The position numbers and the translations under genes were made by a program. This document shows, in pieces, positions 2,058 through 50,748 of a DNA stretch of 51,521 bases (positions are counted from its first letter, which is position 1; each line of letters opens with the position of its first letter). The DNA is taken from NCBI RefSeq assembly GCF_000002075.1, contig NW_004797432.1:597027-648547 (forward strand), given 5' to 3'. Source of the stretch: Aplysia californica. Taxonomy: Eukaryota. The notes under the pieces are model-generated. The model had not been told where the DNA came from. It searched no databases and worked only from the letters and a program-made list of their open reading frames with translations.

Positions 2058-2244
2058 GTGGGTGATTGGCGGGTGCTCTGGTCTGGTTTGCTCCTTTTTT
2101 CCTATATCAAACATCTATCGTCCTTATCTTTCCTTCTTTTTTATGTTTGTTTCTCTCTTGTAACTCTTCTAATCTTCGGCACTTATATGACCTTATTGTG
2201 TCGCAAGTGCCGTAAAACGCTTACTTAATTACTAAAACTAATCT
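2058..2244 (+). mobile_element. ~185-bp short retroposon, family A (GTGGGTGGTTGG head, CTAAAA tail)
   Basis: Aligns by eye over its full length to 12 other copies; degenerate TSD aaacccctcaaaaa / aaaccgcacaaaaa. Confidence 0.85.
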
Positions 2245-2347
2245 AAACCGCACAAAAAAAACCCCAAAACCCCAATTGGTTTTATCCTCACACCTGGTCA
2301 GACAATGCTTTCATAGTTTTTTTTCCTTTCATTTTTTTTCCTTCCAG

Positions 2348-2567
2348 CAACAAGAACAAGATCCTACCAACCTGTACATTGCCAATTTGCCGGTCTACTT
2401 CATGGAGAAAAATTTAGAAAACATGTTCAAGGAATACGGGACAGTCATCTCCACACGGATACTCCGTAAACCCGATGGGCTGAGCAGAGGAGTAGGATTT
2501 GCTCGCATGGAGTCGAAGGAAAAGTGCGATCAGATCATCAATGCATTTAACAACAAAATGTTGCCTG
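2348..2567 (+). CDS. shep: shep/RBMS exon: RRM2 ([15 protein letters not shown]...[29 protein letters not shown])
   Basis: Polypyrimidine tract plus CAG at 2345-2347; donor G|GTAAGA at 2568; RNP2 (LYIANL) and RNP1 (RGVGFARM); phase 0 to 1. Confidence 0.96.
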
Positions 2568-3279
2568 GTAAGAAAATATGCACACCGTTCATATCATAAA
2601 TTAAGGGTAATGTAAAAGATTTTAAAAAACTTTTCAGTTGTAATGTTCCATCTCTATACTACCTTGCTGTTAATTTAAATATTTGGAATAGTAGGTTTTT
2701 TTTAAAATGTAAAACTGTCATGGTCACCAGTTTAGCCTTTTCTCTGCTAAGTTAGTGATGTTTACACCCTTGAGCAGGATTAAAAAGTGGAACAGCAATT
2801 GCGGTGAAGTAGCTAACCGCGATGGTATCGTCATTGGCTAGCCTAGTCTTGACTGTCAGTCAGCTTTTCACAAAGACTGCTAAAAATAACATTATTAAAG
2901 AAGTGAAGTACAATCTACTTCATTGATGCAATTAAATGTGTTTGAGAGAAAATTAATGTAATCACCTCACTTGTCTTTGATTACTGCTAAGAGTGTGACA
3001 AAATGGTATTTAAAACAATGGACAACTATCTTCTTCGTAGACATAATTATGCTAGAGGAAATGAGTTTAACTTCTTTGTGTGCAGTGTTTGACTATCGCT
3101 GGTATGGAGTGAACTTTCATGTTGCCTCAGGGCTTTGTGTTGTGTTTAGTATATTCGGGACAATATCAGTTTTATCATGTCCATGTTATAAGCTACACAT
3201 GTATTTGCTATATGCTGCTGCAGTAGTATTTCATTTTTTTAATGTGAGTTTGTTTGCCTGTCAAAGTTCATGTGTGTGA

Positions 3280-3440
3280 GTGGGTGGCAGTTGCTCTGGT
3301 GTGGTTTGACATCTATCATCATCGTCTCTCCTCTCTCTTCTCTTTGTATGTTACTCTCTAATAATGCCTCTATTCTTCAGCACTTATGTGACCTAATTCT
3401 GTTGCAAGCACTGTAAAACTCTTACTAAAATTAAAACTAA
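3280..3440 (+). mobile_element. Family A retroposon copy ending 23 nt before a splice acceptor
   Basis: gtgggtgg...gctctggtgtggttt...cacttatgtgacctaatt...ttgcaagcactgtaaaactcttactaaaattaaaactaa. Confidence 0.85.
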
Positions 3441-3463
3441 GCTGTGTTTGTGTTCATCCTCAG

Positions 3464-3579
3464 GCTGCACTGAACCATTGTTAGTGAAGTTTGCGGATAG
3501 TGGCAACAAGAAGAAGACCACCACCACAGCCCTCACGCCGCGCTTGTTCACACCAGGAAGAGATGATGCAAGTATTTCA
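3464..3579 (+). CDS. shep: shep/RBMS exon: end of RRM2 (GCTEPLLVKFADSGNKKKTTT...GRDDASIS)
   Basis: Acceptor CAG 3461-3463; EPLLVKFAD family motif; donor GTATGT at 3580, or GCAAGT at 3568 in the same phase. Confidence 0.9.
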
Positions 3580-4057
3580 GTATGTAGCACTGTTCACATT
3601 CATCTCATTACCTCCACTGGCCATCATCAACGCTAATTGGCTTTATGTATTGCTTTTTCTGTTAAGAACATCTAGATTATTTATGACTTGACAGTGGAGT
3701 GATATCCTCAGTATTTATGGCAATGTGTTATCACATTTTTTAAATAGAGGACAGGACCATACTGTGAGTGGGGTCCTGAAAAGTTGAAGATATATGAAGA
3801 AGCCAAGAAATTCAGCTTTGACAGATTAGCTGTGTGACTGGTTTATGCCTTGGCAGATACAGCTTCTCTTGGGGATGTTTTAGCCACTAGAATACATCTC
3901 AAGGTCATTCAGTGGGTTGTTGTGCTGAATTATAAATTTGTCAGACTTTTATGAGCGCCAATGTTAATTTGAAATAAAGGTAATTTATGCTATAAAAAAT
4001 CAAAGTCCATGAAGATACTGACTGACATACATCGCATGTTTTTTTTCTTCCCTTCAG

Positions 4058-4104
4058 GCTATTCAGTTTGCTTATGAGCAGCAGGCGTTAGCCAATTTGA
4101 ATGG
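4058..4104 (+). CDS. shep: shep/RBMS short exon (AIQFAYEQQALANLNG)
   Basis: ttttttcttcccttcag acceptor and GG|GTGAGT donor; phase 0 to 2 fits both neighbours; resembles the RBMS 'LTYDP...QNG' segment. Confidence 0.88.
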
Positions 4105-4614
4105 GTGAGTGATTTGAATATATTTTTTCGTGTTTAGTATACCACGGAATCAGCAGTTGAACTGTTGTTACAAAATGTACCATTTTCTTTCTTGCTTGAC
4201 CAAGATTATGAGGAAATTGTTTCCAAGGTCTTTTCAATCCGTTTTGTCAAAAATTTAAATGTGGTCACAGTTATTAGTGGGCTTGACAACATTATGATTA
4301 TTAGATATTTTCTTTTTCTATATTGTGTATTTGTTAAGCATTGATTCCTTCATTTGTTCATGTTTTCCAAGAGTTACTTTATCTGAAGGTATCTTATTAC
4401 AACTGTCCTCTACCCCCAACCAACACTTTCATTATAGAAATTATGTGATAATGTTGGCAAAAAAAATTATCTTGGAAAGGACGGGAAAAAAAGTGATAGA
4501 TGGATTATTTGTACATGTAGGCAGGCCTGTTTATGTATCGCAGAGACAGACAGTAGTGTTAAATGATGCATCTAATACAATTCTTATGATGTCATGTTTT
4601 TCTGGTGTCTTCAG

Positions 4615-4786
4615 TCAGTATATCAACTACGGTGTACCCACGCCAGCCATCGTACCAGCCGGCCTCGTACCTCGGGCGTATACCTCTGTGGCGGCCACAA
4701 CTCCTGTGACCACATACCAGATGTCGAACCCCACGGCCCAGGGCTGGATGCCACAGTACGTTATGCAGCCACACCAGATGCCACAC
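4615..4786 (+). CDS. shep: shep/RBMS exon, P/Y/T-rich (QYINYGVPTPAIVPAG...GWMPQYVMQPHQMPH)
   Basis: TCAG acceptor ending at 4614; CAC|GTGAGT donor; GC-richer codon usage; phase 2 to 0. Confidence 0.9.
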
Positions 4787-48634: not shown

Positions 48635-48636
<2 letters not shown>

Positions 48637-48819
48637 TTTACTCAACAAAGACAAGTCAATCATGCATGATTCCTTTACTGTCAGTTTTTTTATGCAATTA
48701 ACTTTGATTTGATGTACGACATGACTATATTCCTACATGGCCGTATTGACAAGTAAAAATACCCTTTCCCTCACTGTTTCAAAGAAGTAATTTCTTTTTC
48801 TCAGCTGATGACCTTCAAC

Positions 48820-48945
48820 TTCATCTATCTACCTCATCTCTCCTCCTTGTCTTTGTACACTACTATCTAGTAACATCTCTACTCTTCGGCACTTACATGA
48901 CCTATTTGTTATTGTAAGTGCTGTAAAACTCATACTAAAACAAAC
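48820..48945 (+). mobile_element. Family A retroposon, 5'-truncated
   Basis: catctatc...tcttcggcacttacatgaccta...gtaagtgctgtaaaactcatactaaaac. Confidence 0.8.
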
Positions 48946-48964
48946 TGACACTTCATCCACTTAC

Positions 48965-49064
48965 CTGACACATCTCCCAGCCGGATTGAGCTCATCGACA
49001 CTGCCACGTTGGGACCCACTACGGAATCGCTGGGCTCTGCCGGAGAACCTGACACACTGCTCTC
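48965..49064 (-). CDS. NEK10: NEK10 exon, Ser-rich (ESSVSGSPAEPSDSVVGPNVAVSMSSIRLGDVS)
   Basis: acAG acceptor and G|GTAAGT donor; 100 nt, phase 0-1. Confidence 0.83.
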
Positions 49065-49116
49065 CTGTGTCACACAGAAGAAAACACACTCATAAGCAGT
49101 GTAAATGTAAGTGTAT

Positions 49117-49330
49117 GGATTTAACACCCCTTTCAACACTATTAGGTTATTTAAGAGGCAGGACCTCCGAATGTAATGTTTGTCTCTGACAGCATTAAAC
49201 CAAATGGCTTGACAGCCTTGAAAACTCCACAATACAACCCAAGTTCAAGAATTCCCAGTCCGGGATTCGAACCTGTTTCATCTGCTCTGTAGTTCAGCAT
49301 GAAGCCAACTCAGCTAACAGTGTGCCCATT
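49117..49330 (-). mobile_element. tRNA-derived SINE, family of 40349 (tail fragment also at about 49720-49760)
   Basis: Reverse complement has A box TAGCTGAGTTGG and B box GGTTCGAATCC; tcaacactattaggttatttaagaggcagga is shared. Confidence 0.82.
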
Positions 49331-50464
49331 CATAAGCAGCACAGATATACAGACATCCAGACACAGAAACCAGAAACAGAAGCAAGAACATTAGAAGTTC
49401 TAGAGTGACCCATACCTCAACTTTAATTTAACAAAAAAAGGAGTTTTTTAAACTTTAAAATATCCGGATATGACAAATTGTCAATGGCTGTTTTTGACTG
49501 CCTTCTTACATAATTGTCTCCCAAACTGTTATCTTTACAGAACAAAGAATCAAATAATGCTATTTCCAAAAGGAATTATGAAGAAAATCTTCCCATGAAA
49601 ATAAAAGAGCATAGACTATCTAAAGCAGAGGAGTGAAACTCAATCGCTTGGGAGGGTTCAATCAAATTACACTTAAAGTTACCGGATTAAGTGGATAAAC
49701 ACTCACTGAGCAGTGGAAAACTGAACCCCCTTTCAACACTATTAGAGGCAGGACCTCACAATGATATGAATTAAAGCAGATAAATAACAAATCAAGGCAC
49801 ATCAAGTTTTACTCTTTTAATATAGTGTAAAGCGCACAGAACATGATGTCAAGCCGGGATATGCGCTATACAAACGTTATTTATTAATATTATTATTGTT
49901 ATTATTATTATTACTACTGTTTTACCAGTTTGTCATGCATCTGGATGTTTGGCATATTTTCTTGGCAGACCTTGAGTTTGACACCTGTGATCTAATACCC
50001 AGTGCACACTGCCGATCCAATTTGGTCAAATTCGTTAAAATTGAGTTGGGGCCAGCAAAATTTTTCTTCATGGACTGAGGAAAACTACCATTGTGGCACA
50101 ATTTGAATGAATTCAATCATGACCTTCAAAAACAAACATGTTGATTTTCAAGGCCGCAAGTCGAACGATGGGATTGCATAGCATTTCGCGCAGAATGTAG
50201 TAATGAACAGTGTAGATTTGGAGAAGCCGATACTGATTGATCTAAAAAGTTACCAACATTTCAATACAACAACCGCGATAAAAAGTAGTCAACACTTGAA
50301 GCCGTGTTGGGAATGGTATGTTTTGAGTACTATAATAGCTCGCACCCATCAAAGATTTCTGCTGCTTGTCAACTTTGACTAATGAGGGAGGGATCTAATC
50401 TATTAGTAGTGTGCCACCAAAATTCGACCCTACACGACCCGGGCACTTGGTATAAGGTGATTAC

Positions 50465-50582
50465 CTTGAGTCCCTGAGACCCGCCACTGCCAGCCAGGTT
50501 GGTCAGTTGGTCGTAGCCCTCATGAGTCGTTGGGAACCGGTTGTGGTACTGCTGCATGCTCTGGTTGGTCTCAAGGAAGTGC
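50465..50582 (-). CDS. NEK10: NEK10 exon (HFLETNQSMQQYHNRFPTTHEGYDQLTNLAGSGGSQGLK)
   Basis: ttgcAG acceptor and AAG|GTAATC donor; 118 nt, phase 2-0. Confidence 0.9.
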
Positions 50583-50606
50583 CTGCAACACAGAGTTTTC
50601 AAAAAA

Positions 50607-50748
50607 TGGGTGGTTGGTGGGTGCTCTGGTGTGGTTCGCTTCTTCTTTTCCATCAAGCAACTATCTTTATCATCTCTCATCCTTCTTTTGTTTGTATGTT
50701 GCACTCTGGTAACACCATTAATCTTCGACACATATATGAATTGAGTTA
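50607..50748 (+). mobile_element. Family A retroposon, 3'-truncated
   Basis: tgggtggttggtgggtgctctggtgtggtt...taatcttcgacacatatatga. Confidence 0.82.

Follow-up and report, generated by a model that had tools for sequence, protein, structure and literature searches.

A non-tRNA SINE of Aplysia californica is sense-biased within genes and overrepresented before splice acceptors

Introduction

Mollusc short interspersed elements (SINEs) bearing the tails of Nimb long interspersed elements (LINEs) have been reported, in the accessible portions of two studies, to be enriched in genic DNA (PMC11481361, PMC4758252). Here, we describe a retroposon, family A, from a stretch of 51,521 nucleotides (nt) of Aplysia californica (NCBI RefSeq assembly GCF_000002075.1, contig NW_004797432.1, positions 597,027 to 648,547 of the forward strand; this whole stretch is called the window) and from a wider sample of the same genome. 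Like the Nimb-tailed SINEs, family A is a short, noncoding retroposon with a LINE-derived 3' end and target-site duplications, found in and near genes; unlike them, it has no tRNA head, and the accessible text of the same two papers holds no analysis of strand or of distance to splice sites (PMC11481361, PMC4758252).

The LP-SINEs of Littorina, Haliotis, Ostrea, and Saccostrea take as their head the first ~70 nt of the Nimb 5' untranslated region (UTR; PMC4758252). Family A resembles them in its non-tRNA head, the proposed transcription by RNA polymerase II (Pol II), and an ACTAAA before the terminal tandem repeats, and it has a C/T-rich body in common with the pectinoid LP-SINE form (PMC4758252). 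It appears to differ in its head, in that family A has no significant match to the 5' UTRs of two partner-type LINEs.

Human Alu elements near exons are preferentially in sense, which the accessible parts of two papers explain by selection against antisense copies upstream of acceptors (PMC2533698, PMC3088655). As far as those parts go, Alus are depleted within ~100 nt of exons and biased locally, whereas family A is enriched there and biased throughout introns, and antisense family A lacks a strong acceptor. The SIDER retroposons (ingi clade) belong to an I-related clade. In Leishmania, the accessible part of one study describes them as short and ~4-fold in sense to host transcription (PMC2689281). 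By that partial account, they occupy the 3' UTRs of intron-poor polycistronic units, whereas family A is intronic and has no copy in the UTR-supported stretches of the window. Introners are DNA transposons that create whole introns, are tied to splice signals, and have been proposed to insert into nucleosome linkers; family A, in contrast, is a retroposon inside existing introns, with a weak donor in its head and no acceptor. Nimb-tailed and non-tRNA mollusc SINEs, their genic accumulation, and the local sense bias of Alu are already known. For a 12:1 sense bias together with an excess in the branch-point zone, we found no mollusc report in the open literature, subscription papers and the Repbase and Dfam databases being outside the scope of that search.

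Results

Family A follows the strand of its host genes

Our sample spans ~1.6 Mb of a 927-Mb assembly, a single one, and consists for the most part of conserved genes. Exons outside the window were chosen independently of family A by Pfam searches of the genome (kinesin, myosin, DEAD-box, AMP-binding), their splice sites were called by a self-trained splice model, and the genome was searched with the family A copy at 43880..44060 of the window as the query. Beyond the window, 66 gene spans defined by homology contain 143 family A copies, of which 132 (92%) lie in sense; counted by gene, 37 lean sense and 3 antisense. The upstream introns of Nek10, one of the window's host genes, hold 17 copies, all in sense, and the spans, Nek10, and the window's gene 1 together give 156:14. 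Outside known genes, we used T-over-A skew as a strand proxy, which was correct in 92% of calibration cases; it gives 163:24 in favor of sense, with 114 of 301 copies left without a call. The orientation of family A is thereby a marker of gene direction in unannotated DNA.

The bias holds in introns longer than 4 kb (11:1) and is somewhat weaker more than 400 nt from exons (16:4 vs. 65:2 nearer, P=0.02). Sense copies are also dense: with 156 in 465 kb of gene spans, they reach several times the per-strand density in low-skew random DNA, where 95 kb hold 13 copies on both strands. Other families differ widely. The sister family B is as one-sided (61:4 in spans, 56:6 by proxy). A third Nimb-tailed family (26:3) and A-rich RTE-like fragments (19:3) also lean sense, all tRNA-type families pooled give 64:29 in spans and a terminal-inverted-repeat element 22:22. 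Family A differs in orientation from a tRNA-SINE with the same tail (Fisher test, P=3e-4 in spans and 2e-8 by proxy). The orientation bias is the firmer and more surprising of our results, ahead of the proximity to exons.

Family A is in excess on the acceptor side of introns

The homology-defined set comprised 311 exons refined by the splice model, with 131 of 141 contiguous pairs in phase, after removal of 67 of 378 homology cores for shortness or for E>1e-4 and of 96 of 227 adjacent exon pairs (noncontiguous or out of phase). Elements less than 150 nt from a locus end or within predicted exons were dropped; Pkinase-anchored genes, mostly intron-poor, were excluded, and their flanks, poor in all SINEs, were abandoned as an intergenic baseline. 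This left 74 family A copies, 17 of them from the Nek10 introns beside the window, in introns with a median length of 745 nt. When copies were shuffled within their own introns, 29 of the 74 lay within 105 nt of an exon against 20.5 expected (P=0.014). The excess sits on the acceptor side (20 vs. 10.3, P=0.0014), with none on the donor side (9 vs. 10.3). It persists when each intron is counted once (18 vs. 11.1 among 42 introns) and when known elements are excised and nested ones merged (12 of 57 within 50 nt of the acceptor vs. 4.6). In a count anchored on exons, 24 of 320 acceptors, from 20 of 85 loci, are preceded at 10-60 nt by the end of a sense copy, compared with 32 of 1683 control windows, a 3.9-fold ratio (2.4-7.0 by locus bootstrap). 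None of 326 acceptors has a copy of either strand closer than 10 nt or an antisense one within 60 nt; in the same set, neither family B nor the tRNA-SINEs show an acceptor peak (2 vs. 2.8 and 2 vs. 4.3).

A held-out set of 143 sequences relied on ab initio exons. On Nek10 as a benchmark, 24 of 25 predictions were true and 24 of 28 exons were found; 8 of the 27 predicted exons neighboring elements match Pfam. Distances were measured with the elements excised, as masking them with N penalizes adjacent acceptors. Here, 24 of 121 family A copies lie within 105 nt of an exon against 9.9 expected, whereas the pooled tRNA-SINEs are at expectation (12 of 133 vs. 11.7); in the random regions alone, 8 of 52 family A copies are near exons, against a null of 5.8%.

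The question of exon proximity came from the window, in which a sequence-only reading had located 13 family A copies and placed 8 of them within about 105 nt of an exon edge. Self-BLAST and a profile search recovered the same 13, and the eight distances measure 100, 23, 39, 23, 42, 85, 19, and 23 nt; a 14th profile match, 23018-23066, is the common tail of a tRNA-SINE and not a family A copy. The copies, 10 of 13 in sense to their host, are as follows.

2058..2247, + strand: full-length family A, in sense with gene 1; 100 nt from its tail to acceptor 2348
3276..3440, + strand: family A, sense; tail 23 nt before acceptor 3464, CTAA motifs 24 and 36 nt from the acceptor
18363..18411, + strand: family A tail-only fragment, sense; deep inside a 10.9-kb intron
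21391..21573, + strand: family A, sense; ~320 nt before exon 21894
22040..22208, + strand: family A, sense; 39 nt after the predicted donor 22000
41438..41527, - strand: 3' half of family A, in sense with Nek10; 23 nt separate its tail from the last coding exon, and CTAA motifs occur at 25-37 nt from the acceptor
43880..44060, + strand: family A, full length, antisense to Nek10; mid-intron, with a target-site duplication
44497..44676, - strand: family A, sense; 290 nt after a donor, target-site duplication of ~12 nt
45481..45661, - strand: family A, sense; nested inside the tRNA-SINE 45277-45746
47504..47682, - strand: family A, sense; 42 nt before acceptor 47461, decayed tail in which no branch-point-like motif was found
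47745..47880, - strand: family A, partial, sense; 85 nt after donor 47966
48822..48945, + strand: family A, partial, antisense; 19 nt from donor 48965
50606..50747, + strand: family A without tail, antisense; 23 nt from acceptor 50582

The exon flanks had been put at 6-7% of the window, which is right as an area (6.3%, or 9.9% of intron sequence) and too lenient as a null, because 22.2-41.4 kb are free of copies and many host introns are just 470-900 nt long. Shuffling each copy within its own intron gives 3.5 of 13 expected against the 8 observed, a 2.3-fold excess (P=0.003), with a threshold of 105 nt chosen post hoc, a downstream exon assumed at 24763, and one Nek10 acceptor estimated where the exon runs into N. 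The accompanying claim that the tRNA-SINEs of the window show no such pattern did not hold: two adjoin Nek10 exons, at 42 nt (49107-49320) and 95 nt (44827-44872). Nor is the near-exon share of 62% general, given the 29 of 74 and 8 of 52 above. The excess itself survives control for intron length and is present outside the window, at 1.4-fold for both intron ends and 2-4-fold on the acceptor side, not at ~10-fold; young, older, and partial copies, each few in number, tend in the same direction. The effect is real but smaller and lies mostly on the acceptor side, and the 8 of 13 in the window sample its upper tail.

A collapse of copies toward the acceptor through deletions was considered and rejected, as target-site duplications are present in five of eight high-scoring near-acceptor copies, close to the overall rate. 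As a separate observation, family A has inserted within ~10 nt of a predicted exon start at L013:1500-1690 (- strand) and L020:1180-1370 (+ strand); in both, the target-site duplication copies the acceptor AG behind the tail of the element, and the resulting predicted acceptor scores low.

The tail lies where a branch point would be expected

A sense family A tail lies within 60 nt of 26 acceptors, three of them in the window, and at these we looked 15-45 nt from the AG for a motif resembling a branch point. Nineteen have it inside the element alone, 2 have it in both the element and the host sequence, and 5 lack it in either, and an ACTAA tail stands at branch-point distance in 21 of the 26. 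For comparison, 43% of 283 element-free acceptors carry a branch-point-like motif, and the 5-mers enriched there include CTAAT, TCTAA, and TGACT. In family B, ACTAA is present in 7 of 118 tails and the internal acceptor is strong; this family shows no peak in the homology-defined set. To judge by these motifs, the ACTAA tail likely mimics the branch-point signal, so that insertions near acceptors are tolerated: while an ordinary insertion would displace the host branch point by 180 nt, family A is predicted to bring its own.

Anatomy and origin of family A

Family A is ~180 nt long; its G-rich head is followed by a C/T-rich body, a hairpin, and (ACTAAA)n repeats. The 55 matches in 220 kb (28 random regions) extrapolate to ~10^5 copies in the genome. 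The median divergence of the family is 11%. Among full-length copies, 97 of 170 have target-site duplications of 8-22 nt, with a peak at 10-14 nt, and 149 of 219 have ACTAAA or a similar hexamer before the terminal repeats. The 5' ends are precise: among the 398 matches that include the 3' end, 224 start within positions 1-5 of the profile, and the copies examined gave no sign of 5' transduction. The target motif is weak (Y|AAA), and the base composition of the target flanks is close to the intron background. Family A matches no tRNA (ARAGORN) and no Rfam family, and the RNA data revealed no start of a family A transcript. A run of five or more T is present inside 155 of 183 copies; such runs terminate RNA polymerase III (Pol III). 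Family A is a non-tRNA SINE, SINE-like in its mode of spread and not a classical Pol III SINE, and as it combines the lack of a tRNA head with the internal T-run, transcription by Pol II appears probable.

The hairpin and tail align with the 3' end of LINEs encoding an endonuclease, a reverse transcriptase (RT), and RNase H. Matches to the tail lie downstream of the second open reading frame (ORF2) in 7 of 20 fetched RT loci (L276, L277, L281, L284, L288, L292, L293), and in the five of these that were aligned to the tail, paired changes in the stem are visible. The partner LINE is probably of the Nimb/I type with two ORFs, a name resting on the likeness of its 5' end to the Nimb-type head in the supplement of PMC4758252. 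Family A showed no significant alignment to the 5' UTRs of two partner-type LINEs, L276 and L284 (P=0.13 and 0.08). At one of the loci (L281:400-8550, - strand), a partner-type LINE frame of 1154 amino acids lies within a gene having short introns; these hold ~15 family A pieces, every one on the strand of the LINE and the predicted exons.

The sense strand of family A is 63% pyrimidine and has 1.4 AG per 100 nt, against 12.6 on the antisense strand. Antisense copies carry 4.2 purine-rich enhancer-like hexamers each, compared with 0.02 in sense, as well as weak variants of the poly(A) signal (CATAAA in 72 of 219); their best acceptor and donor (3.0 and 4.5) are at or below the intron background.

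Several other origins were rejected. A snoRNA or ribozyme has no Rfam match in its favor, and the consensus fold is weak, with 1 of 30 pairs showing any two-sided change. As an introner, family A fails on its head donor, whose median of 4.0 is below the 10th percentile of real donors (4.9), on its best sense acceptor (3.9), and on the location of copies inside introns; the same low score speaks against RNA ends being set by the head acting as a 5' splice site. No copy with a possible internal intron spliced out was found in the 1.6 Mb, four shared flanks resembling segmental duplicates, and local hopping from nascent RNA is at odds with neighboring copies being no more alike than distant ones.

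Related families

Two relatives of family A in the window are informative.

22546..23064, + strand: tRNA-type SINE (head type judged by eye) carrying family A's LINE tail, a control for the same machinery
33729..33867, - strand: copy of family B, an older sister family with related head and tail and an equally strong sense bias, without the ACTAA tail
518-638, 21166-21298, 32401-32494, 33009-33059, and 41557-41636: other family B copies

Family B looks as though it held an internal mini-intron: a donor-like site sits near position 23, and near position 100 there is a strong acceptor (median 10.3); no spliced copies of it were found in the 1.6 Mb. The third Nimb-tailed family, ~370 nt long and represented by the C304 fragment 2317-2680 (locus L020), has a C/T-rich body like that of family A and a different head. 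The A-rich LINE 3' fragments, which from their tail and frame we take to be RTE-like, end in (TGA)n (C199 fragment 17468-17811, locus L225); they lie in sense to host genes, the opposite of the mammalian L1 pattern.

Host genes of the window

2348..22000, + strand: gene 1, RRM (RNA recognition motif) protein; exons 2348-2567, 3464-3579, 4058-4104, 4615-4786, 9669-9776, 20703-20783, 21894-22000
41294..51382, - strand: Nek10 kinase, last nine mapped coding exons; the gene extends past the window

Gene 1 matches the RRM domain in one exon and is presumably RBMS/shep-like. RNA-like contigs (runs X13, X15) contain its joints 2567/3464, 3579/4058, 4104/4615, 9776/20703, and 20783/21894, and the donor at 22000 is predicted from a strong site score (12.6) and a contig end, with no joint observed. 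A tandem array with a unit of ~81 nt (20770-21187) has been copied from the end of exon 20703-20783 and includes a second donor of equal score (7.9) at 20859; the RNA contigs use the first. On the + strand, 7712-15600, inside the introns 4787-9668 and 9777-20702, is mostly covered by RNA-like contigs, which suggests that gene 1 has an alternative, long last exon or 3' UTR here; family A is absent from this stretch. The 19 kb between the coding parts of the two genes (22208-41438) hold several family B and tRNA-type SINEs and no family A, and parts under RNA-like contigs may be long 3' UTRs.

Nek10 was identified by an exon 100% identical to P0001 (source name Aplysia californica Nek10), and 28 of its exons were mapped within and beyond the window. 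In raw RNA reads, these exons are barely covered and the joints are swamped by repeats, leaving contig ends alone as useful. A possible frame-preserving cassette exon of 66 nt (41714-41779, - strand, donor score 7.4) is absent from P0001, and a minisatellite with a 33-nt unit (48156-48504) starts 17 nt from the Nek10 acceptor 48139.

Discussion

The sense bias of family A and its excess before acceptors likely reflect a branch-point-like tail and the tolerance of insertions that carry it. For how copies come to be there, the account we prefer, at a little short of even chances, combines generic insertion with a later filter. The machinery of the partner LINE would mobilize family A RNA made by Pol II; insertion would favor the open DNA of transcribed introns, including the linker DNA flanking exons, with a lean to the sense strand; and splicing would then act as a filter, removing antisense copies and other elements from the branch-point zone. 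Only sense family A would be tolerated before an acceptor, its ACTAA tail replacing the displaced branch point. A positive force is needed because tolerance explains the absence of depletion but not a fourfold excess or the high density of sense copies, and we favor generic insertion as that force because other retroposons also lean sense, and antisense copies and one control SINE are somewhat exon-near.

Many observations weigh against this account. As tolerance alone cannot yield an excess, it depends on a presumed insertion preference, and the weak target motif Y|AAA would favor the antisense strand. Antisense copies have no strong splice sites that would account for their proposed purge, and two of the three in the window abut exons. 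The sense bias shows no trend with age, the youngest class standing at 33:2, and the tRNA-SINE with the same tail, scarce in genes, is unbiased (11:8 in spans, 22:25 by proxy). The shuffle, excision, and acceptor-anchored tests of the homology-defined set share exons and are not independent of each other. In the held-out set, family A splits into 15 copies on the acceptor and 9 on the donor side, and family B is also exon-near (7 of 31 vs. 2.5 expected). Among best matches, the control SINE s49110 is exon-near in 8 of 30 (two loci being duplicates; null 11%) and family A in 6 of 27 (null 10%), and in the Nek10 introns beside the window, 7 of 17 copies are exon-near where 5.5 are expected, with 2 against 2.8 on the acceptor side. 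Finally, CTAAA is not among the 5-mers enriched at element-free acceptors, and our motif pattern includes CTAA, so the tail matches it by construction.

Selection alone, which corresponds to the selective retention proposed in the sequence-only reading, is an unlikely explanation that still deserves serious weight: insertion would be uniform, antisense copies would be purged, and sense copies at the branch-point zone would be kept or favored as a better branch point. The wealth of enhancer-like hexamers and weak poly(A)-signal variants on the antisense strand and the stronger sense bias near exons fit it, as does the tendency of the pyrimidine-rich strands of other repeats to follow the gene (TC runs 70:30; family skew vs. 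sense fraction, rho 0.58 across 16 families). There is also a precedent in the antisense Alus depleted upstream of exons, as described in the accessible parts of PMC2533698 and PMC3088655. Yet the A-rich RTE-like fragments are also in sense, and the same-tail tRNA-SINE is unbiased despite 5.4 antisense enhancer-like hexamers. Near-acceptor copies are neither older nor more often tail-only, the bias persists in long introns, and the density of sense copies in gene spans exceeds the per-strand density of low-skew DNA several times.

In its boldest form, the finding would be of a Pol II-made SINE without a promoter head, delivered strand-specifically to transcribed introns and 3' splice sites, with a tail at which several percent of Aplysia introns now branch (24 of 320 sampled acceptors); we consider this rather unlikely. 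Targeting coupled to splicing, in which family A RNA binds branch-point and pyrimidine-tract factors and accompanies the LINE protein to a nascent 3' splice site to be inserted at a nick in the template strand, strikes us as improbable. It would account for the sense share of 86-94% in families that lack a tRNA head (A, B, the third Nimb-tailed one, and the RTE-like fragments) as against 49-71% in the tRNA-headed ones, for the constancy of the bias with age, and for the differing same-tail control, and the internal T-runs argue against Pol III. There is, however, no known route to the choice of strand; family B and the RTE-like fragments are in sense without an acceptor peak in the homology-defined set, most family A copies are far from acceptors, and the lack of likeness among neighbors speaks against local hopping from nascent RNA.

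Priming by microhomology, in which the ACTAA tail would pair with the nicked strand where a host branch point or an older tail lies, both being on the sense strand before acceptors, is very doubtful. Of 15 near-acceptor copies, 10 had no readable duplication; among the five with a clear one, one starts at CTGAC, 37 nt from the AG, and another within an older tail. However, of 97 duplications, 12% have YTRA at their left edge, compared with 8% in flanks, too weak for a fourfold peak, and priming is silent on the global strand bias. That chance and short introns produced the pattern is scarcely credible: the threshold was post hoc, the median test intron is 745 nt, the upstream Nek10 introns show nothing significant, and the control SINE matches family A among best hits, but the within-intron, one-per-intron, element-excised, locus-bootstrap, and held-out tests are all positive, and for strand, 37 genes stand against 3.

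Mammalian SINEs are depleted in the ~100 nt next to exons, and mammalian LINEs tend to lie antisense, according to the accessible part of PMC3088655. Family A, with ~10^5 copies, is the opposite on both counts. The unbiased SINE with the same tail in the same genome provides a built-in control for separating targeting from selection, and for intronic retroposons, the two are directly testable here with population data. If the tail is used, a transposon would supply the branch points of ~7% of the introns of conserved genes in a main model of neurobiology.

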